Assembly: GCA_003141525.1 (NCBI GenBank)
Contig: PLML01000107.1
Location: forward strand, 1-60,502
DNA: 60,502 bases
Source: Bacteroidales bacterium
Lineage (GTDB): Bacteria; Bacteroidota; Bacteroidia; Bacteroidales; VadinHA17
Reading direction: 5' to 3'
Position 1 is the first letter of the stretch, and each line of letters opens with the position of its first letter. The notes beneath the pieces are model-generated. The model ran no database searches and had not been told where the DNA came from. It saw only the letters and a list, made by a program, of their open reading frames with translations. The position numbers and the translations under genes are program-made. This document shows positions 2,376-19,091 of this stretch, in pieces.

Positions 2376-3146
2376 ATGAAAGTACTTATCCTGGCAGGTG
2401 GATTAGGTTCCCGCTTGTCCGAAGAAACTGTTCTTAAACCAAAGCCTATGATAGAGATAGGCGGGAAGCCGATTTTGTGGCACATAATGAAGATATATTC
2501 ATTTTACGGATATAATGAGTTTATTATTCTCTGCGGATACAAGGGATACATGATCAAGGAATATTTTGCACATTATTTTCTTCATATGGCCGACATGACG
2601 ATTGACATGACATCCAATACCATAGTAAATCATAATAGTAATGCTGAACCATGGAAAGTGACATTGATTGATACCGGTGTGGATACAATGACAGGTGGGA
2701 GAATAAAAAGGGTACAGAAATATGTAGGTAATGAACCATTCATGCTTACCTATGGGGATGGGATTGCAGATATCAATTTAAATGAGCTGGTGGAATTTCA
2801 TAAAAGCCATGGAAAACTCATTACAATGACTTCTGTATTGCCTGAAGGACGTTTTGGTGCATTAAGCATTGATAATTCAAACATGATTAAGAGTTACCAG
2901 GAAAAACCTAAAGGTGATGGCTCGTGGATTAACGGCGGATTTTTTGTTTGTCAGCCTAATGTTTTTGACGAAATTGACAATGATAAAACCATTTGGGAAC
3001 GTAAACCATTGGAATCATTGGCCACAAAAGGAGAATTAGTAGCTTATCGTCATTTTGGATTTTGGAGACCAATGGATACATTGCGTGATAAGATTGAACT
3101 TGAAGAAATGTGGAATTCTGAAACCGCTAAATGGAAACTATGGTAA
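2376..3146 (+). CDS. rfbF: Glucose-1-phosphate cytidylyltransferase
   Basis: LAGGLGSRLSEET..KPKPM, TMTGGR, LTYGDG, WINGGFF, MDTLRD. Confidence 0.95.
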   Translation: MKVLILAGGLGSRLSEETVLKPKPMIEIGGKPILWHIMKIYSFYGYNEFIILCGYKGYMIKEYFAHYFLHMADMTIDMTSNTIVNHNSNAEPWKVTLIDTGVDTMTGGRIKRVQKYVGNEPFMLTYGDGIADINLNELVEFHKSHGKLITMTSVLPEGRFGALSIDNSNMIKSYQEKPKGDGSWINGGFFVCQPNVFDEIDNDKTIWERKPLESLATKGELVAYRHFGFWRPMDTLRDKIELEEMWNSETAKWKLW

Positions 3147-4246
3147 CTAAAGAATTCTGGAATGGGAGGAAGGTTCTGATTACGGGACATACTGGTTTTA
3201 AAGGAAGCTGGCTATGTATGCTGCTTAAAAAGCTAGGTGCTGATATTTCAGGTTATGCTCTGGATCCCCCCACTTATCCAAGCTTATATAATCTTTGCAA
3301 TATTAATTCATTCGTTAAGTCAACAATTGGAGATATTCGGGACTTTGACAGATTATTAAATAAAATTGAACAGGATATGCCTGAAATAATAATTCACATG
3401 GCTGCCCAGCCTCTGGTTAAATTATCCTACGAGGCGCCTGTTCTGACTTATCAGACCAATATTATTGGGACGATGAATCTATTGGAAGCAATAAGGGTTT
3501 CAAAATTAAAATCCGTTAGAGTTCTTGTAAATGTAACGACTGATAAATGTTACGAAAATAAAGAGTGGCTTTGGCCTTATCGTGAAAACGAACCATTAGG
3601 AGGATATGATCCTTATTCAAGTAGTAAAGCGTGTTCTGAAATTGTTACTGCATCATACAGAAATTCTTTTTTCAATCTGGCAGAATATAGTAAACATCAT
3701 GTAGCAATTGCAACTGCAAGGGCGGGCAATGTAATCGGAGGAGGTGACTGGGCGGCTGACCGCTTAATACCTGACGTAGTTCGTTCTATTCTTGAGAATA
3801 ACCCAATTATTATTAGAAGTCCTAATGCAATAAGGCCCTGGCAACATGTACTTGACCCACTTACAGGCTATTTAATGTTATCCGAAAGACTATTTAGCTC
3901 TGGTATGCCATTTGCGGAATCATGGAATTTTGGCCCAAATGATTATGATGTAAAATCAGTTAAATGGATTGTGGAAAAATTGTGTGAAATGTGGGGAGAA
4001 GGGGCAACTTATGAAGTGGATGATAAGACTCATAAGCATGAAGCTACATATTTAAGACTGGATTGCTCTAAAGCAAAGGAGAAACTTAACTGGCAACCGA
4101 TTTGGAATCTGAACAAAACACTTGAAAGCATTATTGAGTTTACAGTAGGATATGTAAGAAAGGATAATCTAAGCGAGTTGTGCAATAACCAAATTTCAGA
4201 ATATTTTAATCTTGGGACTACTGTTAGTGGAAACACAGATTATTGA
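3131..4246 (+). CDS. rfbG: CDP-glucose 4,6-dehydratase (start may be the ATG at 3140)
   Basis: TGHTGFKGSWL, HMAAQPLV, TTDKCYEN, YSSSK, RAGNVIGGGDW, RPWQHV. Confidence 0.95.
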   Translation: METMVTKEFWNGRKVLITGHTGFKGSWLCMLLKKLGADISGYALDPPTYPSLYNLCNINSFVKSTIGDIRDFDRLLNKIEQDMPEIIIHMAAQPLVKLSYEAPVLTYQTNIIGTMNLLEAIRVSKLKSVRVLVNVTTDKCYENKEWLWPYRENEPLGGYDPYSSSKACSEIVTASYRNSFFNLAEYSKHHVAIATARAGNVIGGGDWAADRLIPDVVRSILENNPIIIRSPNAIRPWQHVLDPLTGYLMLSERLFSSGMPFAESWNFGPNDYDVKSVKWIVEKLCEMWGEGATYEVDDKTHKHEATYLRLDCSKAKEKLNWQPIWNLNKTLESIIEFTVGYVRKDNLSELCNNQISEYFNLGTTVSGNTDY

Positions 4247-5319
4247 TTATTAGTATGTTTAATGTTTTACTTAAAAAAGACTTAGAACACATAACTACCC
4301 ATTCAGAAAGTGTCCTTGACCAACTGAGAGGGAAAAGTATTTTTATAACCGGAGGAACCGGATTTTTTGGGAAATGGATTTTAGAAACTTTTGCCTGGGC
4401 AAATATTGAGTTAGGTTTGAATGCAAAAATTGTTGTTTTGACTAGAAATATTCTTAATTTTAGAAAAACACACCAGTACTTTTTTGAAAATCATTTATTC
4501 TCTTTTGTGGAAGGTGATATTAATAATTTTATATTTCCGAAAGACAAATTTGATATTATTATTCATGGCGCAACTGATTCAAATTCAGAAATATATAAGT
4601 CAAATCCATTGTTATTATTTGATACAATTCTGGAAGGGACACGTCATATATTAGATTTTGCGGTCAAGTGTGAAGTCAGGAACTTTCTTTATATAAGTTC
4701 TGGGGCAATATATGGCAGGCAACCCTCAGAATTATCTCATATGTCTGAAGAATATAGCGGTGGTCCTGAATTAAATGTTGTTGGTACGTCTTATGCTGAG
4801 GGTAAAAGAGCTGCTGAAATGCTTTGCTCTCTTTATTCATCAAAACATGACATATCAATAAAAGTTGAAAGATGCTTTGCATTTGTAGGACCTTATCTAC
4901 CTTTGAATAAACATTTTGCTATTGGTAATTTTATGAGCGATTGCCTGTTGAACAGACCCATAATAATTAAAGGAGATGGGACTCCAATACGCTCCTATTT
5001 ATATTCTGCTGATCTGATCATTTGGCTATTTACCATCTTGATTAAAGGCGAGAATTGCCGACCTTATAATGTTGGATCAGAGGTTGGAATCTCTATAGAG
5101 AGTCTGGCAAGAACTATTGCAGCTTTAACAAAGGACCCTCTGGAGATAAAAATATTAACTAGGATCACCAGTCAAAGTGGTATAGAAAAGTATCTTCCAT
5201 CTACTAAACGGGCTCAAAATGAGTTGGGTCTGTGTCAATTTATTGATATAAACGATTCCATTCAGCGAACTTTGATTTATCACAAAGCTTCTTATGAAAT
5301 TAATAAGTACTATTTATGA
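4243..5319 (+). CDS. NAD-dependent epimerase/dehydratase/reductase (extended SDR); start possibly 4255
   Basis: TGGTGFFG, SSGAIYG, YAEGK. Confidence 0.85.
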   Translation: MIISMFNVLLKKDLEHITTHSESVLDQLRGKSIFITGGTGFFGKWILETFAWANIELGLNAKIVVLTRNILNFRKTHQYFFENHLFSFVEGDINNFIFPKDKFDIIIHGATDSNSEIYKSNPLLLFDTILEGTRHILDFAVKCEVRNFLYISSGAIYGRQPSELSHMSEEYSGGPELNVVGTSYAEGKRAAEMLCSLYSSKHDISIKVERCFAFVGPYLPLNKHFAIGNFMSDCLLNRPIIIKGDGTPIRSYLYSADLIIWLFTILIKGENCRPYNVGSEVGISIESLARTIAALTKDPLEIKILTRITSQSGIEKYLPSTKRAQNELGLCQFIDINDSIQRTLIYHKASYEINKYYL

Positions 5320-5348
5320 ATATTTAAGTTTTTTAATTAAAATATACT

Positions 5349-6857
5349 ATGAAAATATTTGAAAAACCGCTGTTCATTTTTGAAATGGCAAATAACCATA
5401 TGGGGAGTCTTAATCACGGCTTGAGAATTATTGATGAATTTGCTCATGTTAAAAAAGAATTTGAAAGTGATTTTAATTTTGCCTTTAAATTTCAATTTCG
5501 TCATCTCGATACTTTTATTCATCCAGATTTCAAAGAAAGGAAAGACCTAAAATATGTAAAGAGATTTTCTGAGACAAAGCTGACTGATGACGAATTCAGG
5601 ATACTGAAAAAAAATCTTGATAAATTTCATTTTTTTTCTATATGTACGGCTTTCGATGAGAAGTCAATTGATTTGATTGAAGAGATGGATTTTGACATAA
5701 TTAAAATTGCAAGTTGTTCTCTTACCGATTGGCCTTTATTAGAAAGAATTATTCTGACAAATAAACCAATCATAGCATCAACAGCAGGCTCTGATCTTAA
5801 TAGTATTGATAATGTTGTTAGTTTTTTTCAGCATCGAGATAAAGTTCTTACATTGATGCATTGTGTAGGTGAATATCCAACCAGTCCGGAGAACCTCCAG
5901 CTTAACCAAATAGATTTACTGCAAAATCGTTATGCCGGAATTAATATAGGATTTTCCACTCATGAAGATCCGGATAATCTTGATTCGATTAAGATAGTTG
6001 TTGCAAAAGGAGTAAGAATTTATGAAAAACATGTTGCGGTTGTGAAAGATGAATTCGCAAAGAATGAGTATTCAGCTACACCCGAACAAATTCTAAAATG
6101 GTTAATATCTGCCAGAGAAGCTTTTGCTATGTGTGGGATTTCAAACAGACGAGCTTCATTTTCTGAAAAAGAGTTAACTGATCTGCGGCAATTTAAGAGA
6201 GGTGTATATGCATCTAAAAGCATTAAACAAGGAGAAGTCATTGAACTTTCAAAAACATTCTTTGCTTTTCCAAATAATCCCAAACAACTTTTGGCAAATG
6301 ATATGTCAAAATATACTCAATTTATTGCAAAAAATGACATCAATTTGAATGAACCAATATTTGAAGATAACGTAGATAAATTAGAAAAACGAGAGAAAAT
6401 TTATACTATAGTTCAAAAAGTCAAAGACATATTATTGAAGGGGCGGATTATTTTTCCGGGAAAAGCGGAACTGGAGATTTCTCATCATTATGGCATAGAG
6501 AAGTTCTATGAATTTGGGACAACTATGATTACAGTAGTTAACAGAGATTACTGTAAGAAATTAATTATTTTGTTACCAGGTCAAAAACATCCGGAACAAT
6601 ACCACGCTAAAAAGGAAGAGACCTTTATGATTCTCTACGGTTCTATAAAGGTAACATTAGATGGAATAACCCAAACTTGCAGGCCTGGGGATATTGTAAT
6701 TGTAAAACCAGGCGTGAAACATGCTTTTACGACTGAGGATGGAACGGTATTTGAGGAAATATCATCAACTCATTTTGTAGATGATTCATTTTATACTGAC
6801 AAGAATATTCAAAATTTCAAAAAAAGAAAAACACTTCTAAGTTATTGGCTGGAGTAG
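5349..6857 (+). CDS. NeuB-family (N-acetylneuraminate synthase-like) PEP-condensing enzyme with SAF domain and C-terminal cupin
   Basis: FEMANNHMG, KFQ, KIAS, LMHCVGEYP, GFSTHE, YEKH; C-terminal LLPGQKHPEQYH..KEETF...PGVKHAF cupin motifs. Confidence 0.85.
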   Translation: MKIFEKPLFIFEMANNHMGSLNHGLRIIDEFAHVKKEFESDFNFAFKFQFRHLDTFIHPDFKERKDLKYVKRFSETKLTDDEFRILKKNLDKFHFFSICTAFDEKSIDLIEEMDFDIIKIASCSLTDWPLLERIILTNKPIIASTAGSDLNSIDNVVSFFQHRDKVLTLMHCVGEYPTSPENLQLNQIDLLQNRYAGINIGFSTHEDPDNLDSIKIVVAKGVRIYEKHVAVVKDEFAKNEYSATPEQILKWLISAREAFAMCGISNRRASFSEKELTDLRQFKRGVYASKSIKQGEVIELSKTFFAFPNNPKQLLANDMSKYTQFIAKNDINLNEPIFEDNVDKLEKREKIYTIVQKVKDILLKGRIIFPGKAELEISHHYGIEKFYEFGTTMITVVNRDYCKKLIILLPGQKHPEQYHAKKEETFMILYGSIKVTLDGITQTCRPGDIVIVKPGVKHAFTTEDGTVFEEISSTHFVDDSFYTDKNIQNFKKRKTLLSYWLE

Positions 6858-6888
6858 ATTTTAAGTTGTTTGAATCCATAAGACGATA

Positions 6889-7470
6889 ATGAAAACAATT
6901 GTATGGGATGTCGATGACGTTTTAAATGATCTTACAAGAGAATGGTTTGAAAAAGAGTGGCTTGTCACACATCCTGAATGTAATATAAGTTATACTCAGC
7001 TCAAATCGAATCCTCCAAATGAACTTTTGAATATTGATGTCCAGGATTATCTCAGATCATTAGATCATTATCGTTTATTATATGGTTCGAAATTGAAGCC
7101 AGTGGATGAAGTTTATTCCTGGTTTAAAAGATATGGTCAAATGTATAGAAATATTGTGCTTACATCAACACCGCTTTTTTATGCTCCATATTCATCTGAA
7201 TGGGTTTTGCGAAATTTTGGAGCATGGATCAGATCATTTAATTTTCTTCCCTCACTGAGAGAAGAATCTGAAATTTTTAATTATGACATGAATAAAGCTT
7301 CATACCTGAAATTGTTCGATAAGGTTGATTTATTTATAGACGATAACGAAAAGAATATTTTAGAGGCTCGCTCAATTGGGATAAATTGTATAACAATGCC
7401 CAGGCCATGGAATAGTGATACTTCAACTATTAAAGAGTTTTTATACAACTTGATTACCAATCATTTATAA
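6889..7470 (+). CDS. HAD-superfamily phosphatase (NT5C-like)
   Basis: WDVDDVL motif I, LTS motif II, FIDD motif IV. Confidence 0.75.
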   Translation: MKTIVWDVDDVLNDLTREWFEKEWLVTHPECNISYTQLKSNPPNELLNIDVQDYLRSLDHYRLLYGSKLKPVDEVYSWFKRYGQMYRNIVLTSTPLFYAPYSSEWVLRNFGAWIRSFNFLPSLREESEIFNYDMNKASYLKLFDKVDLFIDDNEKNILEARSIGINCITMPRPWNSDTSTIKEFLYNLITNHL

Positions 7471-7503
7471 TGTTTTATTGATAACATATATCAATATAAA
7501 AGT

Positions 7504-9309
7504 ATGCAAAAACTGTCTGATTTTGTTTTAGAGTTCATTGCAGAGAAGGGTGTAAAACATATTTTTCTATTACCAGGAGGCGGCTCGATGCATCTTGTCG
7601 ATTCTTTAGGAAGGAATCAACGAATTGAATTTATTGTCAATTTACATGAACAGGCCTGTGCAGTTGCAGCGGAAGCATATGCTCAATATACAAATAATCT
7701 AGGTGTAGCTCTGGTTACTACCGGTCCTGGTGGAACAAATACTTTAACAGGAGTAGCTGCAGCATGGCAAGACTCGACCCCTTGTTTATTTCTCTCAGGC
7801 CAGGTAAAAAGATCTGATATGATGGGTAAAAGAGGCGTAAGGCAGATGGGATTTCAGGAAATCAATATTGTTGATATCGTGAAACCAATGACTAAATATG
7901 CCATAACTGTAGATAATCCTGACGCGATAAAATATCATCTGGAAAAAGCAGTATATCTGGCAAAAAACGGAAGACCCGGACCTGTATGGTTGGATATTCC
8001 TCTTGATGTTCAGTCCAGTACAATCGATGAAACCAGACTTAAGTCCTTTAATCCTTCAGAGATAAATAATGATAACGATCTAGCAGCACTTCATAATTCA
8101 GTTCTCCAGACTATTGAACTCATTAACCAATCTGTACGACCAGTAATATTGGCAGGTAACGGGATAAGGTTATCAAATGGGTTAGATCTGTTTTTAAAAT
8201 TAGTAGAACTAATAAAGATCCCTATTCTGACAACCTGGAAAGCAATCGATTTTTTTGATGAAGAGTATCAATATTACATTGGACGCCCAGGAAGTGTAGG
8301 ACAAAGGGCTGCAAATTTTGCTCAACAGAATTCTGATCTGATCATCAATATTGGTGCAAGGTTGGATTTAGGTCAAACAGGATATAACCATACAAATTTT
8401 GCGAGAAATGCCAAAAAAGTGATGGTTGATATCGACGCTGCAGAAATCAACAAAATGCAGATGAAAATTGATATTCCTATATGTTATGATGCCAGTTTAT
8501 TTCTAAAAGAATTCCTTAACAACACAGAAAAAATTGTAAATAAGGACAGGAGTAAATGGTTGAATACTTGTCTAGCATGGAAGAAAAAATATCCCGTAAT
8601 CTTACCTGAATATTATGAGGAGAAAGACTTTGTCAATGATTATGTTCTGATTGATCTATTATCCAAGGAACTTGGAGACAATGATGTTTTAGTACCAGGA
8701 AGTTCAGGAGCTTGCAGTGAGCGAACAATGCAGGCTTTTAAAGTAAAAAAAGGGTTGCGGATTTTTAATAGTGAAGCTTTAGGCCCGATGGGTTTTGGTA
8801 TTCCGGCTGCTATCGGAGCTTGTATCGCTAGTGGCCTGAAAAGAACGATATGTATTGATGGAGATGGCGGATTTGTCATGAATATTCAAGAATTGGAAAC
8901 TATAAGGCGATTAAATCTCCCTATTAAATTTTTTATTTTAAATAATAAGGGATATGCCTCAATTAGGGCTTCCCAAAATAACTATTTTAATAGACGTTAT
9001 GTTGGAAGCAGTATCGATAGTGGACTTACTCTCCCTGATTTTTGCAAGGTTTCATTTTCTTATGGAATAGAAAGTCTGCCAATAAGAACAAATAGAGAGT
9101 TAATTGAAAAACTTAATTTTATACTAAGTTCCTATGGTCCAATTATTTGTGAGCTATTTGTCAATCCCGATCAACTAACAATGCCTCGAATACAGAATGT
9201 ACAAAAAAGTGACGGAACCATGATTTCAAAACCGATGGAAGATTTGTGGCCCTTTTTAGATAGGGATGAATTTCTTTCAAATATGATAATTCCCCCGATA
9301 GAAGAATAA
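7504..9309 (+). CDS. Thiamine-diphosphate-dependent enzyme (AHAS-like, YerE-type carboligase)
   Basis: HEQ catalytic Glu, TTGPGGTN, GRPGPVWLDIP, GDG...NN ThDP motif; lies within a CDP-sugar cluster. Confidence 0.88.
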   Translation: MQKLSDFVLEFIAEKGVKHIFLLPGGGSMHLVDSLGRNQRIEFIVNLHEQACAVAAEAYAQYTNNLGVALVTTGPGGTNTLTGVAAAWQDSTPCLFLSGQVKRSDMMGKRGVRQMGFQEINIVDIVKPMTKYAITVDNPDAIKYHLEKAVYLAKNGRPGPVWLDIPLDVQSSTIDETRLKSFNPSEINNDNDLAALHNSVLQTIELINQSVRPVILAGNGIRLSNGLDLFLKLVELIKIPILTTWKAIDFFDEEYQYYIGRPGSVGQRAANFAQQNSDLIINIGARLDLGQTGYNHTNFARNAKKVMVDIDAAEINKMQMKIDIPICYDASLFLKEFLNNTEKIVNKDRSKWLNTCLAWKKKYPVILPEYYEEKDFVNDYVLIDLLSKELGDNDVLVPGSSGACSERTMQAFKVKKGLRIFNSEALGPMGFGIPAAIGACIASGLKRTICIDGDGGFVMNIQELETIRRLNLPIKFFILNNKGYASIRASQNNYFNRRYVGSSIDSGLTLPDFCKVSFSYGIESLPIRTNRELIEKLNFILSSYGPIICELFVNPDQLTMPRIQNVQKSDGTMISKPMEDLWPFLDRDEFLSNMIIPPIEE

Positions 9310-9329
9310 AAATGATGAGGCAGTAAAAG

Positions 9330-10298
9330 ATGAAATTTTTAATTGCAGGGCTTGGATCCATAGGATGTCGGCATCTAAGAAATTTGATATCGCTTGGGGA
9401 AAGAGATATAATCCTTTATCGCAGTAAATTAAGCAACTTAGTTAATAATGAATTCAAAGAATTCCTCGTTGAGACGAACATTAATTTAGCACTTGAGCAT
9501 AAACCGGATGCGGTAATAATATCAAATCCTACTTCATTACATCTTGATGTGGCTATCCCTGCTGCAGAAGCCGGGTGTCATATTTTACTTGAAAAACCAA
9601 TATCTAATTCATTGGAACGCATTAATGATCTTAAGTTAGCTTTGCAGAGAGGCGGCAGTAAAATTTTAGTTGGATTCCAATACAGATTTCATCCTACACT
9701 CAAAATTGCAGCTCGTATTCTTTCTAACGGAGACATTGGAAATCCAGTTTCAGCACGAGCTCATTGGGGTGAATATTTGCCTGACTGGCATACGTTGGAA
9801 GATTTCCATAATAGCTATTCTGCGCGTGTGGATTTAGGAGGGGGAGTTGTTCTAACTCTCTGTCATCCTATTGATTACTTAAGTTGGCTACTGGGAAAGC
9901 CTAAATTTATTTGAGCAGAGATGGGTAATATGGGAGAATTGGGAATACAAGTAGAGGATATAGCAGAGATTGTACTGCGTTTTCCAAATGGAGCTCTCGG
10001 TAGCATTCATCTTGATTATATACAGAGACCTGCAAGTCATCACTTCGAAATTATTGGAACCAAGGGTACTCTTAGATGGGATAACGTTAGCGGCATATTA
10101 TCTATCTATCGACACAATAATTCAGATTGGGAACATTTTATTCCTCCCGAAGGGTTTGAACGGAATTGGATGTTCATGGATGAAATACGACATTTTGTTT
10201 CAATTATACGATCTGAAGTTCCTCCTTTATATACACTTGATGATGGAATAAATGCTCTTGAAATCGCTATTCATTCGCTATCCTTTAATAGTCAGTGA
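9330..10298 (+). pseudogene. Gfo/Idh/MocA oxidoreductase interrupted by an in-frame TGA at 9912-9914
   Basis: GLGSIG, LEKP, GGGVVLTLCHPID; ORFs 9330-9914 and 9921-10298 are in the same frame (att tga gca gag atg). Confidence 0.8.
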
Positions 10299-10383
10299 TT
10301 AATAAGATGATAGAGCATATTTTCAAGAAGGTTTATACATAAAATTTAAAAAGAGATATAAAAATTATTTACGGGGGAAAAGC

Positions 10384-11586
10384 ATGATAAAACATAATAA
10401 TAAAAACCAGTATATTAAAAACCTTAGGGAACTTTTAAGTGAAGATTTAGATTCTGTGATTAAAAGAGAACAATCGACATTTGATAATCTGGTGTATCCA
10501 TATAATGATAGATTAGTTCTTTTTGGTGCAGGAGGGTTAGGCAAGAAAGTACTACAAGGTCTGCGTCAAATCGGAACGGAACCGTTAGCGTTTGTTGACA
10601 ATAATCCATCTTTTTGGCAAGAAAAAATAGACGGTCTTGTCGTATTTGATCCAAAAACTGCGTCCCTAAGATATGGTAAAGATTCGGTATTTATAGTCAC
10701 CATTTGGAGAGCTGGAGGAGATCATCGACTTGCTAAAACGCAGAAACAATTATATGATTTAGGCTGCAAAAAGGTCATATCTTTTGCTTCGTTGTTTTGG
10801 AAATTCCCTGATATTTTTTTACCTTATTATACAATAGGTCTTCCTCACTTGTTAATTATGCAAAGTAGCCAGATACTGAGTGCATTTAATTTGTTAGAGG
10901 ATGACAATTCACGCTTCGAATTTATCGCCCAATTACGTTGGCGTTTGCATTTGGATTTTGATGGGCTACCGTCCCCAGTAACTCACGATCAATATTTTCC
11001 TGACGATTTGTTTACATTAATTTCAGACGAGGTATTTGTTGATTGCGGGTCTTTCGATGGCGATTCTATTCGGAGTTTTTACCAGAAAAAACAAGTTTTT
11101 AATGGGAAAATATTTGCAATTGAACCCGATCCACAAAACATTAAAAAATTAGAAATGTACTTAACTTCGCTTGACAAATCTTTTAAAGATAGTGTTTCCA
11201 TTATTCCGAAGGTAGTAGGTAGAAAACATGAAATACTACGTTTCTCGGCTAATGGGTCTGCTTCTTCTGTAATTGATCCTGAAGGAATAATCGAAGTTGA
11301 ATGTTCTCCAATAGATGATATAGTTGGCCATATAAATCCCACTTTTATAAAAATGGATATCGAAGGTGCTGAGTTAGATGCCTTGTATGGTGCCACCAAA
11401 TCGATTAGGAATTCGCTACCAATTTTGGCGATAAGTGTTTATCATCTTCCAGATCATTTATGGCGTATTCCTTTGTTTATTAATTCAGTTACTGATCAAT
11501 ATCATTACTTCCTACGTCCACATAACGAAGAAGGTTGGGATTTAGTTTTATATGCTATCCCAAACGAGCGATTACTAAAAAGCTGA
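10384..11586 (+). CDS. FkbM-family methyltransferase with N-terminal Rossmann-like domain
   Basis: LFGAGGLG; FVDCGSFDGD, IEPD, FIKMDIEGAE, ISVYH. Confidence 0.85.
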   Translation: MIKHNNKNQYIKNLRELLSEDLDSVIKREQSTFDNLVYPYNDRLVLFGAGGLGKKVLQGLRQIGTEPLAFVDNNPSFWQEKIDGLVVFDPKTASLRYGKDSVFIVTIWRAGGDHRLAKTQKQLYDLGCKKVISFASLFWKFPDIFLPYYTIGLPHLLIMQSSQILSAFNLLEDDNSRFEFIAQLRWRLHLDFDGLPSPVTHDQYFPDDLFTLISDEVFVDCGSFDGDSIRSFYQKKQVFNGKIFAIEPDPQNIKKLEMYLTSLDKSFKDSVSIIPKVVGRKHEILRFSANGSASSVIDPEGIIEVECSPIDDIVGHINPTFIKMDIEGAELDALYGATKSIRNSLPILAISVYHLPDHLWRIPLFINSVTDQYHYFLRPHNEEGWDLVLYAIPNERLLKS

Positions 11587-11658
11587 CTTGTGTTAAGCTG
11601 TTTAGGATATTACTTAGTATTATTTTATGATTTCAATTTAAAACTCTTATAAATACTT

Positions 11659-12464
11659 ATGGACAAATTATTCTCTTTAAAGCATAAAATTGCTGTTGTA
11701 ACTGGAGCTTTGGGACTTATAGGCAAAAACCACTGCTTAGCATTAAATAATGCTGGAGCTTCAGTAGTAGTAGCAGACTTGGATGAACAAAAATGCATCG
11801 ATTTTGCCAATAAATATCTTCATAATTCTACTGGAGTTTATCTCGATGTAACAAAAAAGGAATCAGTTATAAATTTAATGGATAAGGTTCTAAGCATATA
11901 TCAAAAAATAGACATACTCATTAATAATGCAGCTATTAATGATATGTTCGAAGATCCTAAAGTGGCTACTGAACAATCCAAATTTGAAAATTATCCTATT
12001 GAATTATGGCAAAGATCAATCGACGTGAACCTTACTGGAGTTTTTTTATGTTCACAGGTAATTGGAAGTGAAATGGTAAGGCAAAAAAGCGGAAGTATTA
12101 TCAATATAGCTTCTACTTATGGAATAACTGCTCCTGATCAATCAATATATATAGATGAATTTGGAAATCAATCTTTTTTTAAACCTCCTGCTTATTCAAT
12201 ACTAAAGGAGGAGTTATCATGCTAACCAAATTCTTGGCATCTTATTGGGGCAAAACAGGAGTCAGAGTAAACACCTTAACTCCCGGTGGTGTTAAAAATG
12301 CTCAAAATGATTTTTTTGTTAGTAATTACTCGAAAAGAACTCCATTAGGAAGAATGGCAGAACCGAGCGATTATCAAGGTGCAGTCATCTTTTTAGCTAG
12401 TGATGCGTCAGCTTACATGACAGGTGCAAATCTTATTGTAGATGGTGGTTGGACATGTTGGTAA
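11659..12464 (+). pseudogene. SDR oxidoreductase split by a 1-nt frameshift at about 12199-12200
   Basis: TGALGLIG, NNAA, NIAS; tat tca at act aaa gga gga reads YS(x)TKGG if one base is restored; continues [13 protein letters not shown]. Confidence 0.85.
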
Positions 12465-12553
12465 TTATTGAAATGATGAGGATTCTTATCGCTTGATTTC
12501 TCCATCGTTATACTAATGCATTATACTGTTCTAATATTTATAGCCATTCTGGT

Positions 12554-13417
12554 TTGAAAATTTTAATAACAGGGGGATCCGGTTTTATCGGTAAAAATCT
12601 GATAGAACAGTTGAACCATAAATATGCAGTATTTGCTCCTAGTAGTAGAGACTTGGACTTATTAGATGAAGAAGCTGTTTTAACTTTTCTTGATCAAATT
12701 CATTTTGATGTGGTAATTCACTCAGCAACCTGGAATGCTACACTGACATCTTCCAAGGATTCCTCCCTTGTTTTATATAATAATTTGAGAATGTTTTTTA
12801 ATCTAGCACGGGGAGCAAACCTTTACAAGAAAATGATCTATTTCGGATCTGGTGCTGAGTTCGATTTAAATCATTGGGTACCTAAAATGAGTGAAATATA
12901 TTTCGACTCATTCGTTCCTCATGATCAATATGGATTCTCTAAATATATTATGAATAAATACTCTGAAAAAGAAGCTAATATATATAATTTAAGACTTTTT
13001 GCTGTTTACGGTAAATATGAGGATTGGCAGATAAGATTTATCTCACAAAGTTGCTGTCGTGTAATTAAAAATATTCCCATTTCAATTAAGAAGAATGTAG
13101 TTTTTGATTACACACACATTGATGATATCATAAAAATCACCGATTGGTTCATTAATAATACTCCAAAATCTAAAACTTATAATATCTGTTCAGGAACGAC
13201 TTATAGTTTGATTGAATTAGCTCAAAAAGTACTTTCAATTGAAGGAAAGAAACTGGATATTCATATTGAAAACAAAGGAATGGGAAGAGAATATAGCGGT
13301 GACAATTCAAAACTCCTTGATGAAATAGGAAATTATTCTTTTAGAAATATTGATGTCTGTATTCATGAGTTATATAGTTGGTATTCAAATCAATTTATTG
13401 ATTCATGTAAACTTTAA
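12554..13417 (+). CDS. NAD-dependent epimerase/dehydratase/reductase (TTG start)
   Basis: TGGSGFIG, GSGAE, YGFSK. Confidence 0.85.
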   Translation: MKILITGGSGFIGKNLIEQLNHKYAVFAPSSRDLDLLDEEAVLTFLDQIHFDVVIHSATWNATLTSSKDSSLVLYNNLRMFFNLARGANLYKKMIYFGSGAEFDLNHWVPKMSEIYFDSFVPHDQYGFSKYIMNKYSEKEANIYNLRLFAVYGKYEDWQIRFISQSCCRVIKNIPISIKKNVVFDYTHIDDIIKITDWFINNTPKSKTYNICSGTTYSLIELAQKVLSIEGKKLDIHIENKGMGREYSGDNSKLLDEIGNYSFRNIDVCIHELYSWYSNQFIDSCKL

Positions 13418-13455
13418 ATATAAAATCTTTTACTTCCATTTATAATTTCAAATTT

Positions 13456-14655
13456 ATGAACTTAACTTATCAAAAGGAAGGACGGAATTGTCCTGTTTGT
13501 AGAAGTGAAGAAAGTCAATTATTGTTTCGAACTAGATTCTCCAAAATTTCTGACAACTATCTTCTTGACTCATATGATGTAGTGGCTTGTAAAACGTGCG
13601 GGTTTTGTTTTGCAGATCAAATTCCAAATCAAGGAGTATTTGATAAATATTATAAGAATATGTCAAAATATGAGGAGTCAAAATCACTTTCCATGGATTC
13701 TCAGTATGATGTAAAACGATTCAATCAAATTGTAGAATTCATAAATTCAAATATTAAAGATAAGAACTCTCGCATAGTAGAAATTGGTTGTGCAACTGGT
13801 TTACTATTATCTCTTTTAAAAAAGAAAGGATTTAATAATCTTTTAGGAATAGACCCCTCTCCTTCTTGTGTCGAAACAATACGTAACAAGTATGGCATAC
13901 CGTCTCTATTAGGTACAATCACCGATTTGTCATCAATAAAAGCCGAATCTGTTGATTTAGTAATTTTAGTCGGAGTACTTGAGCATATAAGAGACTTGAA
14001 TTTAGCTCTCATGGAGATTAGAAATGTACTGAGATCTGATGGTAAAATTTGTATTGTAGTGCCTGACGCTTCTCAGTATCTAAATGGGAATGATGCTCCA
14101 TTCCAAGAGTTTAGTGTTGAACATATAAACTACTTTGGCCCAGGATCACTTATAAATTTGATGATCAGTCAAAATTTTTCAAAAGTAGTTATTGACCAAC
14201 AAGTGTTTGAAGTTAATTTTAACACGTTTACTCCAGTTATTTTGAACCTATTTAAAAAGAGTAAAGAAAAAGAGAAACAATTTAAATATGATATGGGGAC
14301 TGTCACGAACTTCAAAGAATATATCATTAATTGTTACGAGCGAGAAAAATCTATTCACGACAAAATTGAAAAGATAAATATTGATAAGAAACCTTTGATA
14401 ATTTGGGGTACCGGAGCTCAGACACTAAGATTACTTGCAAATAGTGATCTCTCTAAGGCAAATATCATTGCATTTGTAGATTCAAATCCAAAATATCATG
14501 GAAAGAAGTTGAATGATATTTCTATAATAAGTCCGGAGGAACTAAAGAATATGAAGGAAACAATACTAATTTCCACAAGAGCATATCAAAATGAAATTGA
14601 GGACCAAATAAGGCAGGTTCTTAAATTAAAGAATACGATAATTAAGTTATATTAA
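13456..14655 (+). CDS. Class I SAM-dependent methyltransferase with N-terminal Zn-binding Cys motifs (sugar methyltransferase-like)
   Basis: CPVC..CKTC, EIGCATG, VLEH, C-terminal IWGTG..VDSN. Confidence 0.8.
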   Translation: MNLTYQKEGRNCPVCRSEESQLLFRTRFSKISDNYLLDSYDVVACKTCGFCFADQIPNQGVFDKYYKNMSKYEESKSLSMDSQYDVKRFNQIVEFINSNIKDKNSRIVEIGCATGLLLSLLKKKGFNNLLGIDPSPSCVETIRNKYGIPSLLGTITDLSSIKAESVDLVILVGVLEHIRDLNLALMEIRNVLRSDGKICIVVPDASQYLNGNDAPFQEFSVEHINYFGPGSLINLMISQNFSKVVIDQQVFEVNFNTFTPVILNLFKKSKEKEKQFKYDMGTVTNFKEYIINCYEREKSIHDKIEKINIDKKPLIIWGTGAQTLRLLANSDLSKANIIAFVDSNPKYHGKKLNDISIISPEELKNMKETILISTRAYQNEIEDQIRQVLKLKNTIIKLY

Positions 14656-14675
14656 CAATATTTTCATAATATTCG

Positions 14676-15998
14676 ATGAACAAATCAGATGAAATTAGAA
14701 AAAGTATTCATGAGTTAACCAGGGAATATTTTCAGACTAAATTTGAGAGCCAGCCATTTATTCCGGGTAAAACTAAAGTTAATTATGCTGGCCGGATTTT
14801 CGACGAAATGGAGTTAATAAATCTTGTAGATTCATCTCTTGATTTTTGGCTTACAGAAGGTCGCTACTCTGAGCAATTTAGTGAAAAAATAGCTGATTTT
14901 TTAGGTGTTGAATATGTACTTCTCACAAATTCAGGTTCTTCAGCCAATCTTCTATCTTTTGCTGCTCTCACATCGGAAAAATTGGGAGAAAAGCGTCTGA
15001 AACCGGGAGATGAGGTTATTTCAGTTGCAGCAGGATTTCCTGCAACAGTCACTCCAATTATTCAATATGGTATGGTGCCAGTCTTTGTTGATGTACAGAT
15101 TCCTACCTATAACATCGATATCGAAATGCTAAAAAAAGGAATTTCTGCAAAAACAAGGTGTATTTTCATTGCTCATACTCTGGGCAACCCATTTGATTTA
15201 GATGAAGTGTTGAAAATTGCCAACGAACACAATTTGTGGATAATTGAAGACAATTGTGATTCTTTTGGGAGTAAATACAATGGCAAATATACTGGTACCT
15301 TTGGGCATTTATCTACAATTTCATTTTATCCTGCACATCATATCACAACAGGTGAAGGTGGAGCAGTTGTAACTAACAATGCTCTTCTGGCAGGTATAGT
15401 ACGCGCCTTTCGTGATTGGGGCAGAGATTGTTATTGTGCAGGAGGTGAAAATAATACTTGTGGAAAGCGGTTTACTCAAAAATTCGGTGATCTTCCGGTT
15501 GGCTATGATCATAAATACGTATATTCCGAAGTTGGCTACAACCTTAAAATGACAGAGATGCAGGCAGCTGTTGGTGTAGCTCAAATGGATAAATTAGAAT
15601 TATTTTGTGAGAAACGCATTGAGAACTTTAAAAAGCACTATAAAATATTTTCAAAATATCCGCAATACTTTATCCTCCCTGAAGCCACTTACAAAGCCGA
15701 TCCGGCGTGGTTTAGTTTTATTATTACAATTAAGAAGGATGTTCCGTTTACCAGAGATCAATTTACTAAATTTCTCGACGAACATCTTATCGAGACCCGG
15801 AATCTGTTTGCAGGTAATTTGACTAAACAACCTGCATTTATCAATAAACCATATAGAATAGCTCAAAATCTGGACACCACAGATTATATTATGAATAATA
15901 CATTCTTTATGGGAACATATCCCGGAATGGATGACTCACGATTCGATTTCATAGACTCCGTACTTGAAAAATTTATTTCCCGGTTTAATCAGAAGTAA
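14676..15998 (+). CDS. rfbH: CDP-4-keto-6-deoxyglucose 3-dehydrase (E1, RfbH/DdhC)
   Basis: NSGSSAN, EDNCD, SFYPAHHITTGEGG (His at the usual PLP-Lys position), RDCYC...NTCG Fe-S Cys, ETRNLFAGN. Confidence 0.93.
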   Translation: MNKSDEIRKSIHELTREYFQTKFESQPFIPGKTKVNYAGRIFDEMELINLVDSSLDFWLTEGRYSEQFSEKIADFLGVEYVLLTNSGSSANLLSFAALTSEKLGEKRLKPGDEVISVAAGFPATVTPIIQYGMVPVFVDVQIPTYNIDIEMLKKGISAKTRCIFIAHTLGNPFDLDEVLKIANEHNLWIIEDNCDSFGSKYNGKYTGTFGHLSTISFYPAHHITTGEGGAVVTNNALLAGIVRAFRDWGRDCYCAGGENNTCGKRFTQKFGDLPVGYDHKYVYSEVGYNLKMTEMQAAVGVAQMDKLELFCEKRIENFKKHYKIFSKYPQYFILPEATYKADPAWFSFIITIKKDVPFTRDQFTKFLDEHLIETRNLFAGNLTKQPAFINKPYRIAQNLDTTDYIMNNTFFMGTYPGMDDSRFDFIDSVLEKFISRFNQK

Positions 15999-16041
15999 AA
16001 TTGGAAAATAGTCTCAGAGCTGAATTTGTGTAACTGGATTC

Positions 16042-16989
16042 ATGAAGATAATAAAGATTATTGAAAAAATTATCTTGATATTAATAATTTGTCTTTACTC
16101 CTGTGAGAGAGCTTCGCTTGATACAGAGTATATTACAAAGAATGTTATCATTATAGTTATTGATGGTCCAAGATATTCCGAAACCTGGGGTGATTCGAGC
16201 TTTTCCAATATTCCCCAAATGAAAAAAATTTCAGAATTTGGTGTCTTGTATACTAACTTTTATAACAATGGAGCTACGTACACAATACCTGGTTATACCT
16301 CTATAACGACTGGTAATAATGAGGAAATAAATGACTTAGGTCTTGAAAAACCGGAATTTCCCTCAGTTTTTCAGTATTGCAATAAAAAATACTCAGGAAA
16401 TTTTCCTGTATCAAGCATATTTGCCAGCAAGTACAAAATCTCAGTAGTTTCTGATTGTCTCGATTCATCCTATTCTGGTTTCTATAAGCCATTTTGTGAT
16501 TGTGGTGTTAATGGAATAGGAGTTGGAAATGGCTACCGTGATGACAGTATTACTATCAGAAAAACACTGACATCTCTAGATGAAGAACATCCCAGATTAA
16601 TTCTCATAGGTTTCGGGGAACCTGATTATTCAGCTCATAATAAAAACTGGCAGGAATATATTGATGCTATTAAAAATACTGATAGTTATGTTTATCAGGT
16701 TTGGAATTTCATTGAAAAGGACAAATATTACAAAGGAACAACTGCAATTTTTATTACAAACGACCACGGACGGCACCTGGATAATGTGAAAGATGGATAT
16801 GTATCTCATGGAGACACCTGTGACGGTTGCCGGCATATAAGTCTACTGGCTTTTGGTCCGGATTTTAAAAAAGGAGAAGTAATAAAGATTAATCGTGAAC
16901 TTATAGATATTCCTGCTACAATTGCTATGGTTTTAAAATTTCATATGCCCACAGGACATGGGAATATAATGAGTGAGCTGTTTAAATAA
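16042..16989 (+). CDS. Alkaline-phosphatase-superfamily metalloenzyme, probable lipoprotein
   Basis: Hydrophobic N-terminus ending LYSC; IVIDG, TIPG..S..TG, PDYSAH, TNDHG metal ligands. Confidence 0.7.
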   Translation: MKIIKIIEKIILILIICLYSCERASLDTEYITKNVIIIVIDGPRYSETWGDSSFSNIPQMKKISEFGVLYTNFYNNGATYTIPGYTSITTGNNEEINDLGLEKPEFPSVFQYCNKKYSGNFPVSSIFASKYKISVVSDCLDSSYSGFYKPFCDCGVNGIGVGNGYRDDSITIRKTLTSLDEEHPRLILIGFGEPDYSAHNKNWQEYIDAIKNTDSYVYQVWNFIEKDKYYKGTTAIFITNDHGRHLDNVKDGYVSHGDTCDGCRHISLLAFGPDFKKGEVIKINRELIDIPATIAMVLKFHMPTGHGNIMSELFK

Positions 16990-16998
16990 TAATAATAT

Positions 16999-17688
16999 AT
17001 GTCACTTCCTAAAAAATACAAAGCGGAGGTTATTTCAGTTGTAAATCCTATAGACAAAATATATATAATAGAATTAAAGTCTGATTCAGGCGCATTTAAA
17101 TATCGTCCTGGACAATTTTTGCATCTTGCTTTAGATGAATATGATCCAAGTTCGGGATGGCCAGAGTCACGTTGTTATTCTATGCAGACATCTCCTGTTA
17201 ACGAATTCATTAAAATTACCTTTTCTGTGAAGGGGAAATTCACAACAAGAATGGCTGATGAACTAAAACAGGGGAAGATTATAGATTTAAAACTTCCTTA
17301 TGGAGACTTTTTTCAACAAGATCATTCAAAAGAAAATGTGGTATTTATTGCAGGAGGAACTGGAATTACTCCATTTTTGTCTCTGTTTAACGATCCTTCT
17401 TTTATAGAATATTCAAGTCCTAAATTATATTTTGGCGTCAGAGAAAAAGGATATAATATTTACACTGAGTTTCTGAATCTAGCCATGGAAATTAATCCTG
17501 GATTACATATAGATATCAGATATCAGGACAAAAGTGGATTTCTGGATTTAGATCAGATTTTTTACGAAAACAAGGAAGATTCCACCTACTTTATTTCGGG
17601 ACCACAGACAATGATCTCAGTATTCAAATCACGTTTAATCTCATTAGGATTAACAGAAGTAAATGTTAAAACTGATGATTGGGAATAA
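16999..17688 (+). CDS. FAD/NAD(P)-binding ferredoxin-reductase-like protein (E3/RfbI-like, no 2Fe-2S domain)
   Basis: PGQF, RCYS, PYG, AGGTGITP, SGP. Confidence 0.8.
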   Translation: MSLPKKYKAEVISVVNPIDKIYIIELKSDSGAFKYRPGQFLHLALDEYDPSSGWPESRCYSMQTSPVNEFIKITFSVKGKFTTRMADELKQGKIIDLKLPYGDFFQQDHSKENVVFIAGGTGITPFLSLFNDPSFIEYSSPKLYFGVREKGYNIYTEFLNLAMEINPGLHIDIRYQDKSGFLDLDQIFYENKEDSTYFISGPQTMISVFKSRLISLGLTEVNVKTDDWE

Positions 17689-17723
17689 TATTTTAGAAAT
17701 AATTTTAAAAGGAAGGAATTACT

Positions 17724-19091
17724 TTGATTGAGCTTGTTATAAGAATTCTAAAAAAGTTTGGTGTTGATAGGGCTATCTTTTACACATCTGCGTCAAGAAT
17801 ACTTCAGGCATTCACCGGAGTTATTACAATATTTTTTGTAGCGCGATTCCTTTCAGGGGTAGAACAGGGATTTTACTACACTTTTGGTAGTATACTTGCA
17901 ATCCAGATATTTTTCGAATTAGGATTAAACGGAATTATTACTCAGTATGTTGCTCATGAAGTGTCTCATCTCCAATGGGATTCGAATGCAAGGCTGAGTG
18001 GTTCGCCGTCTCATTTGTCCCGGCTGTCTTCATTACTACATCTCTCTGTAAAGTGGTATTCAATAATAGGAGGAATCCTTCTCTTGATATTACTTATATC
18101 TGGTTTTGTTTTTTTTAGAAGATATGATACATCCGGAGGAGCAGTTATCTGGAATGTTCCATGGATAATCCTTTCATTTTCAACAACTCTTGCATTTCTT
18201 ATAAACCCGATTCTTGCTTTTATAGAAGGTCTCGGAAAAGTAAAGGAAGTTGCAAAGATGAGATTGACACAACAGATTCTGACTACTTTTCTGATATGGA
18301 TTTGTTTAATCTCAGGAGTGAAGCTCTATGCAAGTGGCCTGAGTAATGTATTTGGTCTTTTGTTGTTATTGAATCTTCTTTTCTTCAATAAATACTGGTA
18401 CATATTCGTAAATATATGGAGATCATTAGGTAAGGAAAAGGTTGGTTATAAGCAGGAAATTTTTCCCTACCAGTGGAAAATTGCTCTTAGTTGGGTAAGC
18501 GGATATTTTATTTTTCAGTTGTTTAATCCGGTCCTTTTTGCTACCGATGGTGCCATTGTGGCTGGTCAGATGGGGATGACCCTTGCTGTACTGAATGGTA
18601 TATTTAGTTTGTCCTTCAGTTGGATGTCTACCAAAGTTCCTCTTTACTCCGGGTTTATCGCTCAGAAAAAATATGACGAACTTGATCATGTATTTAATAA
18701 AACTCTTAAACAATCAAGCTTTATAAATGGATTAGGTCTAGGGGTTTTATTCTTCCTGATTTTTGGATTAAGATATTTCAATATGACCCTTGGAAATCGG
18801 TTTCTCCCATTTTTACCATTATTAATGATGATGATACCTGTGTTTTTGAATCAATTTATATCTTCATGGGCAACATACCTGAGATGCCATAAGCAGGAAC
18901 CATTTCTTATTCCATCTCTTGTCGGCGCGATTACTTGTAGTCTTTCGACAATCATTCTTGGTAAGTATTTTGGAGTTATTGGAATGACCATGGGATATTG
19001 TATCCTTACTATTTTTGGAGGTTTTATCTGGGGCTATTATATTTTTAAAACAAAAAAGAAAGAATGGCATAAAACGGTTGTTTTCTCGTAA
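17724..19091 (+). CDS. wzx: Wzx-type O-unit flippase (TTG start)
   Basis: 455 aa with about 12 hydrophobic segments; QGFYYTF..ELGL; locus context. Confidence 0.75.
   Translation: MIELVIRILKKFGVDRAIFYTSASRILQAFTGVITIFFVARFLSGVEQGFYYTFGSILAIQIFFELGLNGIITQYVAHEVSHLQWDSNARLSGSPSHLSRLSSLLHLSVKWYSIIGGILLLILLISGFVFFRRYDTSGGAVIWNVPWIILSFSTTLAFLINPILAFIEGLGKVKEVAKMRLTQQILTTFLIWICLISGVKLYASGLSNVFGLLLLLNLLFFNKYWYIFVNIWRSLGKEKVGYKQEIFPYQWKIALSWVSGYFIFQLFNPVLFATDGAIVAGQMGMTLAVLNGIFSLSFSWMSTKVPLYSGFIAQKKYDELDHVFNKTLKQSSFINGLGLGVLFFLIFGLRYFNMTLGNRFLPFLPLLMMMIPVFLNQFISSWATYLRCHKQEPFLIPSLVGAITCSLSTIILGKYFGVIGMTMGYCILTIFGGFIWGYYIFKTKKKEWHKTVVFS

Follow-up and report, generated by a model that had tools for sequence, protein, structure and literature searches.

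The long carbon branches of erwiniose, caryophyllose and gastriose have been proposed to arise by ligation of a hydroxylated 2-keto acid, supplied by a clustered aldolase, to cytidine diphosphate (CDP)-4-keto-3,6-dideoxyglucose; the ligation is attributed to a thiamine diphosphate (ThDP) enzyme resembling YerE and is followed by a reduction (Steitz et al. 2022, PMC9306805). The donors of YerE-like enzymes include C4-C8 hydroxylated 2-keto acids: ErwE rejects pyruvate and accepts 4-hydroxy-2-keto acids, MMAR_2332 behaves similarly, and MyGE of Mycobacterium gastri accepts C3-C8 2-keto acid donors (PMC9306805). Erwiniose (ErwE/F/I/J of Pectobacterium atrosepticum) and caryophyllose (MMAR_2331-2333 of Mycobacterium marinum) share the scheme of a dedicated donor, YerE-like ligation and reduction, with donors made by pyruvate-dependent class II aldolases, either BphI-like or HpcH/citrate-lyase-like (PMC9306805). 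Gastriose carries a highly hydroxylated C7 branch, for which a polyhydroxylated keto acid was proposed as donor, and MyGE is encoded near an "aldolase MygI" and a reductase MygF (PMC9306805). The yersiniose A pathway (DdhA-D, YerE, YerF) uses the same route to the CDP-ketosugar acceptor and the same type of ThDP enzyme, but YerE moves only C2-C3 units from pyruvate or 2-oxobutyrate, according to a review (PMC12247030), and yersiniose needs no genes for keto-acid supply. Here we analysed a stretch of 60,502 nucleotides (the window, contig PLML01000107.1 of the genome of a peat bacterium of the Bacteroidales) with an operon at 2376-17688 that encodes a gene set of the gastriose kind, including a NeuB-type synthase fused to a cupin domain (NeuB-cupin).

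This operon is likely to direct the synthesis of a CDP-3,6-dideoxyhexose with a long polyhydroxyalkyl branch at C4, of the gastriose type, for which the NeuB domain would make the donor. We propose that the product is destined for the O-antigen or capsule locus 3' of the operon. The predicted set for CDP-4-keto-3,6-dideoxyglucose (rfbF, rfbG and rfbH) is present, confirmed by scores above the NCBIfam equivalog cut-offs (Table 1). The window lacks a class II aldolase. A NeuB-type synthase stands in that place, as in M. gastri; it is predicted to depend on phosphoenolpyruvate (PEP), is fused to an isomerase-like domain and is paired with a phosphatase. An original prediction made from the letters of the window had listed the genes of the operon, and analyses of open reading frames (ORFs), Pfam and NCBIfam recovered all those it named, at their positions on the + strand, including two extended short-chain dehydrogenases/reductases (SDRs) and two methyltransferases, one of the FkbM family. 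Its inventory had left out a split GFO/IDH/MocA dehydrogenase gene, a split classical SDR gene and an alkaline-phosphatase-superfamily gene. It had also called the last gene of the operon an E3-like reductase, which stood as far as the FAD/NAD module of the FNR type is concerned; the 2Fe-2S domain is absent and the assignment as E3 is weak.

The NeuB-cupin protein has 502 residues and matches PF03102 at residues 46-263 and Cupin_2 at residues 406-463. The match to the NeuB_NnaB model runs to position 326 of its 329 and hence takes in the SAF-like part. The protein has the PF03102 TIM barrel and the SAF-like part in common with the synthases NeuB, PseI and LegI, but differs from those systems in its additional cupin, in the lack of NeuA and NeuC partners and in its scores, which are well under the equivalog cut-offs (121.4 bits vs 399.65 for NeuB, 119.8 vs 340.25 for PseI). 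A solved, uncharacterised structure labelled "SpsE" (PDB 3g8r, 350 residues, cupin-less) matches residues 5-343 with 355 bits; this close relative of the NeuB part is a possible structural template for the subfamily. We modelled the C-terminal 158 residues alone from an alignment of 60 sequences (predicted local distance difference test, pLDDT, of 93.5). The six best matches of this model in a fold search of the PDB are D-lyxose isomerases (including 2y0o and 7nzo-q, template modelling scores 0.72-0.74, root-mean-square deviations 2.2-2.4 Å), followed by other sugar isomerases and phosphomannose isomerases. The modelled domain thus looks like a D-lyxose-isomerase-like fold and is a putative ketose/aldose isomerase. 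NeuB-cupin has 71 positions that do not vary among 74 homologues, including the "YP" and "S.H" segments of the NeuB barrel and, in the cupin, H380, H419, E424 and H458, which by analogy would be the metal ligands.

The next gene encodes a protein of 193 residues that was identified by its fold, given that the Pfam scan and a sequence search of the PDB returned no match. Its AlphaFold model (pLDDT 95.9) has HAD (haloacid dehalogenase) phosphatases as all of its top Foldseek matches. In 44 homologues the motif residues D7, D9, D10, K136 and D152 are invariant, and T92 and D151 nearly so. All invariant residues of both NeuB-cupin and HAD are kept in the proteins of the window. Three unrelated HAD families were found within 6 kb of the NeuB-cupin gene in related loci (65 of 80 in total): the type of the window in 50 loci, HAD_2 in 10, including those of mycobacteria, and Cof in 5. 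The refilling of this slot by non-orthologous phosphatases argues for a phosphatase step as part of the module.

The ThDP enzyme scores under the equivalog cut-off for acetohydroxyacid synthase (AHAS). Its best PDB matches are JanthE (8rph, 408 bits), which is the closest solved structure, and 5ahk (312 bits), which we take to be YerE of Pseudomonas protegens; true AHAS reach at most 259 bits. JanthE is described in PMC12188165 as a YerE-like enzyme with unidentified physiological substrates and with the ThDP motif CDG, where the enzyme of the window has GDG. A separate AHAS-like paralogue, 34% identical to the enzyme of the window, is encoded on another contig of the genome (C106). These comparisons confirm the window enzyme as a predicted YerE-like carboligase, apart from AHAS.

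The closest described system is the gastriose cluster. In the M. gastri genome, one locus carries genes for a polyketide synthase (PKS), GtrA, rfbG, rfbH, rfbF, a family 2 glycosyltransferase (GT2), NeuB-cupin, the ThDP enzyme, a HAD_2 protein, a class I methyltransferase, an FkbM methyltransferase, an SDR and a GT87-like protein, in this order. Both loci have rfbF/rfbG/rfbH, NeuB-cupin (53% identical), the ThDP enzyme (46-47%), a HAD phosphatase, FkbM and class I methyltransferases and an extended SDR (27%). The HAD of M. gastri is of a different family and its gene follows the ThDP gene, unlike in the window. The M. gastri cassette sits in a PKS/lipooligosaccharide locus, that of the window in an O-antigen-type locus, and M. 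gastri lacks the GFO, classical SDR, alkaline-phosphatase-like and FNR-like genes. The ThDP enzyme of this locus is very probably MyGE, since it is the only YerE-like enzyme of the M. gastri genome (583 bits and 47% identity, vs 226 bits for the next). We found no HpcH/HpaI aldolase on the contig of the locus, the matches in M. gastri being on other contigs only. MygI is most likely the NeuB-cupin protein, which is encoded by the sole C-C-forming gene within 10 kb. A C7 branch requires a C8 2-keto-3-deoxy acid, which matches the product of PEP and a pentose; a D-lyxose-isomerase-like domain, as a pentose isomerase type, would fit such a pentose-derived C8 acid.

The linkage of these genes is conserved across phyla. 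A scan of species-representative genomes with NeuB-cupin gave 240 relatives among 294 candidate stretches, and we kept the best 80. These 80 loci were picked by NeuB-cupin only (51-64% identity), and all of them carry the cupin, given that their alignments extend to residue 500-502. They come from Thermodesulfobacteriota, Nitrospirota, Omnitrophota, Patescibacteria, Planctomycetota, Chloroflexota, Acidobacteriota, Bacteroidota, Proteobacteria and Mycobacterium, and two are archaeal records. Enterovirga aerilata (L072) and M. szulgai (L078) are examples of carriers in culture. Co-occurrence was counted by tblastn with the proteins of the window (coverage at least 50%, E < 1e-10) and by six-frame searches, the ORF map having some spurious opposite-strand ORFs in high-GC loci such as L012, L041, L056, L070 and L072. 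The original prediction had expected the ThDP gene and rfbFGH to co-occur with NeuB-cupin and neuA to be absent. This is the pattern we observed: the ThDP enzyme has a homologue in 69 of the 80 loci, RfbH in 60 and rfbF and rfbG in 58 each, and NeuA/KdsB-like genes occur in two loci, so that no neuA-like gene is consistently linked to this NeuB. In 68 loci the distance between the ThDP gene and NeuB-cupin is at most 6 kb. Of the 11 loci without a ThDP match, nine have a flank of under 3 kb on one side of NeuB-cupin. Where at least 3 kb of flank is available on both sides, the ThDP gene is found in 60 of 62 loci, and in L068, one of the two exceptions, clustering reveals a ThDP ORF. The commonest order is rfbF-rfbG-rfbH-NeuBcupin-HAD-ThDP.

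The related loci also have frequent neighbours that are absent from the window. These are two radical-SAM/SPASM families (33 and 20 loci), a NUDIX hydrolase (32), a TylC3-like C-methyltransferase (26), an epimerase (17), a B12-radical-SAM enzyme (11) and GT2 proteins.

The original prediction had recognised no cytidine monophosphate (CMP)-ulosonate synthetase (NeuA/KdsB) and no NeuC in the window. The profiles PF02348 (NeuA/KdsB) and PF02350 (NeuC) indeed have no match on its contig. Elsewhere in the genome, PF02348 matches contigs C8 and C19 only. The protein of C8 is KdsB (215.8 bits, cut-off 155.2) and that of C19 a MocA-like molybdenum-cofactor cytidylyltransferase. Matches of PF02350 are confined to contigs C55, C20 and C41, and the sole other PF03102 match of the genome is a 3-deoxy-D-arabino-heptulosonate-7-phosphate (DAHP) synthase. 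By these profiles, the NeuB-family gene of the window is without a recognisable NeuA or NeuC partner in the assembly. In the related loci we used an iterated hidden Markov model (HMM) over all 8,779 six-frame ORFs. This superseded a phmmer search with KdsB and the C19 protein, which was too insensitive (it gave the true PF02348 protein of L058 an E-value of only 0.003). The HMM, built from 5-6 sequences so that very distant members may escape it, found CTP_transf_3-like genes in the two loci mentioned above, L012 and L058. Those of L058 are two copies (252-953 and 6021-6866), of which one adjoins a homologue of the GFO gene of the window. The proteins of both loci are divergent (at most 74 bits against KdsB models). 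These two lineages may activate the ulosonate with CMP as well; alternatively, the enzyme may act on a different substrate.

For the substrate of the NeuB domain, the point of phosphatase action, the reducing SDR and the final structure, we infer the following scheme. RfbF, RfbG and RfbH, with the FNR-like or a host flavin reductase, would produce CDP-4-keto-3,6-dideoxy-D-glucose. The cupin, its likely substrate being a ketopentose or ketopentose phosphate, would isomerise a ketose to the aldose, which the NeuB domain would join to PEP to give a 3-deoxy-2-ulosonic acid, C8 if the aldose is a pentose. The HAD enzyme would strip the phosphate, either from the precursor before condensation or from the product after it. 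The YerE-like enzyme would then decarboxylate the ulosonate, and the resulting acyl carbanion would attack the C4 ketone. One of the two extended SDRs would reduce the new 1'-ketone, the two methyltransferases would decorate the product, and the GT2 and flippase would hand it to the downstream glycan locus (22-46 kb). The route to 3-deoxy-D-manno-octulosonate (KDO), KdsD-KdsA-KdsC-KdsB, also goes from a ketose to an aldose by an isomerase, condenses it with PEP to a 3-deoxy-2-ulosonate and removes the phosphate with a HAD phosphatase. In this textbook comparison the folds are unrelated, with a cupin and not SIS for the isomerase and NeuB and not KdsA for the synthase. The KDO route ends in CMP activation, the cassette of the window would end in decarboxylative ligation by ThDP. 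On balance we favour the broader view that NeuB-cupin and HAD form a self-contained donor module converging on the logic of KdsD/KdsA/KdsC, with a 3-deoxy-2-octulosonate passed to the ThDP carboligase, and that about 240 species-representative genomes would in this way encode gastriose-like C13 branched sugars for the cell surface.

Several observations weigh against the long-branch scheme. D-lyxose isomerases act on unphosphorylated sugars, which makes the phosphatase step ambiguous, and in 15 of the 80 loci no gene of the three HAD families lies within 6 kb. The alkaline-phosphatase-like gene of the window, and the NUDIX and radical-SAM genes that accompany the cassette elsewhere, find no place in the scheme. 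The FNR-like protein matched no 2Fe-2S domain in the Pfam and NCBIfam scan. Two tailoring genes (GFO and classical SDR) are broken in this strain. The KdsB of the genome could in principle activate an octulosonate, and CTP_transf_3-like genes do occur in two loci, the one of L012 (12081-12950) sitting between the HAD and ThDP genes. The main text of PMC9306805 calls MygI only an "aldolase", its probable identity with NeuB-cupin being our assignment. MyGE also took pyruvate, with 40% conversion (PMC9306805, Table 1), and was inactive with ketone acceptors in vitro, as reported in a review (PMC12247030).

The putative mechanism of the original prediction is nevertheless the best-supported reading of the locus, largely by comparative genomics, on account of the conserved triad of NeuB-cupin, HAD and ThDP enzyme beside rfbF/G/H, the rarity of NeuA, the lyxose-isomerase fold and the M. 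gastri cassette. Its main rival holds that the operon serves two products: a sugar with a C2 unit derived from pyruvate, of the yersiniose type, and a separate ulosonic acid resembling KDO or 2-keto-3-deoxynononate (KDN) and activated elsewhere, e.g., by KdsB. This is unlikely. A NeuB synthase accompanied by a HAD phosphatase is a known layout for phosphorylated ulosonates, as in the KDN-9-P synthase and phosphatase and in human NANS and NANP. The genome does encode a KdsB, a CTP_transf_3-like gene is present in two of the 80 loci, and the activity of MyGE with pyruvate (PMC9306805, Table 1) keeps this explanation alive. Yet in 68 of 80 loci a YerE-like gene is found no further than 6 kb from NeuB-cupin, mostly in the order NeuB-HAD-ThDP, and the maintenance of this linkage across phyla makes two unrelated pathways improbable. 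A NeuA-like gene was found neither in 78 of the 80 loci nor, KdsB excepted, in the genome, and M. gastri, which has the cassette, makes a C7 branch and not a C2 branch (PMC9306805).

A second explanation, which we hold to be quite unlikely, is that the cassette is in decay in this strain, where it would give either nothing or a product less elaborate than that of an intact cassette. The GFO gene has an in-frame stop codon (TGA) at 9912-9914 that is unchanged in the contigs of four metagenome runs (X6, X7, X8 and X10). We ruled out selenocysteine at this site. The intact homologue of L058 has a valine at that position, which indicates a nonsense mutation, probably an old one. The classical SDR gene is frameshifted near 12200. 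A lesion in the T run at 12174-12180 (T7) was considered and rejected, given that the metagenome contigs place the frameshift at about 12200. The X6 and X8 contigs that span the site have the identical allele. A deep contig of X7 is 99.6% identical over this part (13 substitutions in 3.2 kb) and has one extra A behind 12200 and two substitutions at 12220-12221; read by hand, its SDR frame is open through the active-site region. The stretch 9300-12500 recurs in many assemblies of peat and soil metagenomes (17 studies, 20 rows). The presence of the alleles of the window in independent peat assemblies (both sites in X6 and X8, the TGA also in X10 and X7) shows that both lesions are real and not assembly errors, and the SDR lesion, the frame being kept in the close X7 variant, is a strain-level gene inactivation.

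Two further observations agree with decay. A transposase gene lies within the glycan locus (20469-21557), and a full-length orthologue of NeuB-cupin was found in none of the 40 relatives searched, 24 of them of the same genus, where the best matches are ordinary NeuB-family or related genes with 22-30% identity. It is probable that the cassette arrived by horizontal transfer within a variable surface-glycan locus. Decay of the pathway as such is opposed by the state of its core: rfbF/G/H, NeuB-cupin, HAD, the ThDP enzyme, both extended SDRs and both methyltransferases have full-length open frames, the invariant residues of NeuB-cupin and HAD are all retained, and the broken genes are rare accessories, with homologues in one (GFO) and none (classical SDR) of the 80 loci.

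In the pathways of pseudaminic and legionaminic acid, the nucleotide is removed before a NeuB homologue acts. A reversed order of this kind, in which a CDP-sugar, maybe C2-branched, is hydrolysed by a NUDIX or alkaline-phosphatase-like enzyme and HAD, isomerised by the cupin and condensed with PEP by NeuB to a new higher ulosonic acid, could draw on the NUDIX genes beside the cassette in 32 of 80 loci and on the nucleotide-pyrophosphatase-like gene of the window (16042-16989), but is very unlikely: the CMP-transferase it requires is missing, 48 of the 80 loci have no NUDIX gene, the alkaline-phosphatase-like gene is unique to the window, and no 3,6-dideoxyhexose with a C7 branch, as reported for M. 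gastri (PMC9306805), would result.

The long-branch scheme was presented as a candidate new pathway in the original prediction. Here it did not hold: the scheme of aldolase, YerE-like ThDP enzyme and reductase, and a cluster with the same genes in M. gastri, are already in PMC9306805. The window is a further carrier, of modest added value. In the searchable texts (supplements lay outside the search), no paper joins NeuB or "neuraminate synthase" with caryophyllose, yersiniose, YerE or erwiniose. As far as these texts show, two points are unpublished: that the "aldolase" of the gastriose type would be a PEP-dependent NeuB-isomerase fusion accompanied by a phosphatase, and that the cassette is present in about 240 species-level genomes of bacteria and archaea. 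With the cassette, a gap of the published gastriose scheme, the source of the C8 keto acid, becomes amenable to testing.

If the proposed scheme is true, the annotations "N-acetylneuraminate synthase" or "SpsE" and "acetolactate synthase" are misleading for the genes of the cassette, and carriers predicted to make sialic-acid-like sugars would really make long-branched dideoxy sugars. It would also be the first non-sialic, non-glycosylation fate described for a product of the NeuB family, and would reveal a widespread class of glycans, from Patescibacteria and Omnitrophota to mycobacteria and archaea, that is chemically known from a single Mycobacterium. The cassette can be used as a sequence signature to predict long-branched sugars in uncultured lineages, and biocatalysis could draw on its natural ThDP enzymes, which are predicted to take large polyhydroxylated donors.

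The window is a complete contig (C209) of an assembly of 4.8 Mb (241 contigs, 93.7% complete). From 2376 to 19091 every gene is on the + strand and intergenic gaps are of at most about 90 nt. The order from rfbG to rfbH is the first extended SDR, NeuB-cupin, HAD, the ThDP enzyme, the GFO pieces, FkbM, the classical SDR pieces, the RmlD-like SDR and the class I methyltransferase. Genes for the alkaline-phosphatase-superfamily enzyme, the FNR-like reductase, a Wzx-like flippase, a GT2 and the transposase follow on the 3' side of rfbH.

Table 1. Genes of the proposed branched-sugar operon and of the two glycan genes that follow it, with the number of related loci (out of 80) that have a homologue by tblastn.
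Feature	Position	Strand	Basis	Loci
rfbF, glucose-1-phosphate cytidylyltransferase	2376-3146	+	TIGR02623, 427.7 bits (cut-off 300.25)	58
rfbG, CDP-glucose 4,6-dehydratase	3131-4246	+	TIGR02622, 483.9 bits (cut-off 278.45)	58
Extended SDR, candidate branch-ketone reductase (YerF/MygF-like)	4243-5319	+	Pfam Epimerase	
NeuB-type PEP-condensing synthase (with SAF-like part) and D-lyxose-isomerase-like cupin	5349-6857	+	PF03102, Cupin_2	
HAD-superfamily phosphatase	6889-7470	+	conserved motifs, AlphaFold model and Foldseek	48
YerE-like ThDP carboligase	7504-9309	+	three TPP domains	69
GFO/IDH/MocA sugar dehydrogenase, probable pseudogene	9330-10298	+	both halves match Pfam and NCBIfam; in-frame TGA	1
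FkbM-family methyltransferase, PglD_N-like N-terminus	10384-11586	+	Pfam/NCBIfam	12
Classical SDR, frameshifted	11659-12464	+	Pfam halves in different frames	0
RmlD-like extended SDR, second candidate reductase (branch ketone or ring)	12554-13417	+	Pfam Epimerase, RmlD_sub_bind	16
Class I S-adenosylmethionine methyltransferase, C-terminal domain of sugar C-methyltransferases	13456-14655	+	Methyltransf_23, Methyltransf_14	25
rfbH (E1), CDP-6-deoxy-L-threo-D-glycero-4-hexulose 3-dehydrase	14676-15998	+	NF011936, 678 bits (cut-off 423)	60
Alkaline-phosphatase-superfamily enzyme	16042-16989	+	Pfam Phosphodiest, Sulfatase, Metalloenzyme; weak NCBIfam matches	0
FNR-like flavin reductase, 229 residues, possible E3 substitute	16999-17688	+	weak FAD_binding_6 and NAD_binding matches	3
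Wzx-like O-unit flippase	17724-19091	+	NF041503, 88.5 bits (under cut-off 300)	
GT2 glycosyltransferase	19221-20249	+	PF00535	

The accessory genes of the operon differ in how often they recur. The first extended SDR is 27% identical to the SDR of the M. gastri locus (E 3e-33) and has homologues of 38-52% identity in about 18 of the 80 loci. Homologues of the RmlD-like SDR are frequently immediately 3' of the ThDP gene. Those of the class I methyltransferase include 15 close ones (at least 34% identity), and its ORF cluster has 16 members, that of the window included. An FkbM methyltransferase is also found in M. gastri. The FNR-like protein aligns solely with the FAD/NAD part of reductases of the BenC, MmoC and PaaE type, and its rarity means that most related loci are without even such a module.

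The transposase gene (DUF772 and DDE_Tnp_1) separates the branched-sugar operon from the remaining glycan locus. The second stretch of glycan genes (22169-46515) encodes a hexapeptide acetyltransferase, several GT2 proteins, a Bac_transf initiating transferase, a second DegT aminotransferase, a polysaccharide deacetylase with DUF3473, a GT4, a second flippase-like protein and a GT1-like protein. It also includes large ORFs without a Pfam match (23638-24888 and 29200-31284). Just 5' of the sugar operon (1344-2089), a small nucleotidyltransferase gene (NTP_transf_2, Polbeta) overlaps an ORF of 153 residues with faint HEPN-like matches; by these domain matches the pair looks like a toxin-antitoxin system of the MNT/HEPN type. 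A gene at 43-1173 encodes a protein of 376 residues resembling GDP-L-fucose synthase (437.7 bits, under the cut-off of 500). The match is split into two stretches, as if the enzyme had an insertion in its middle.

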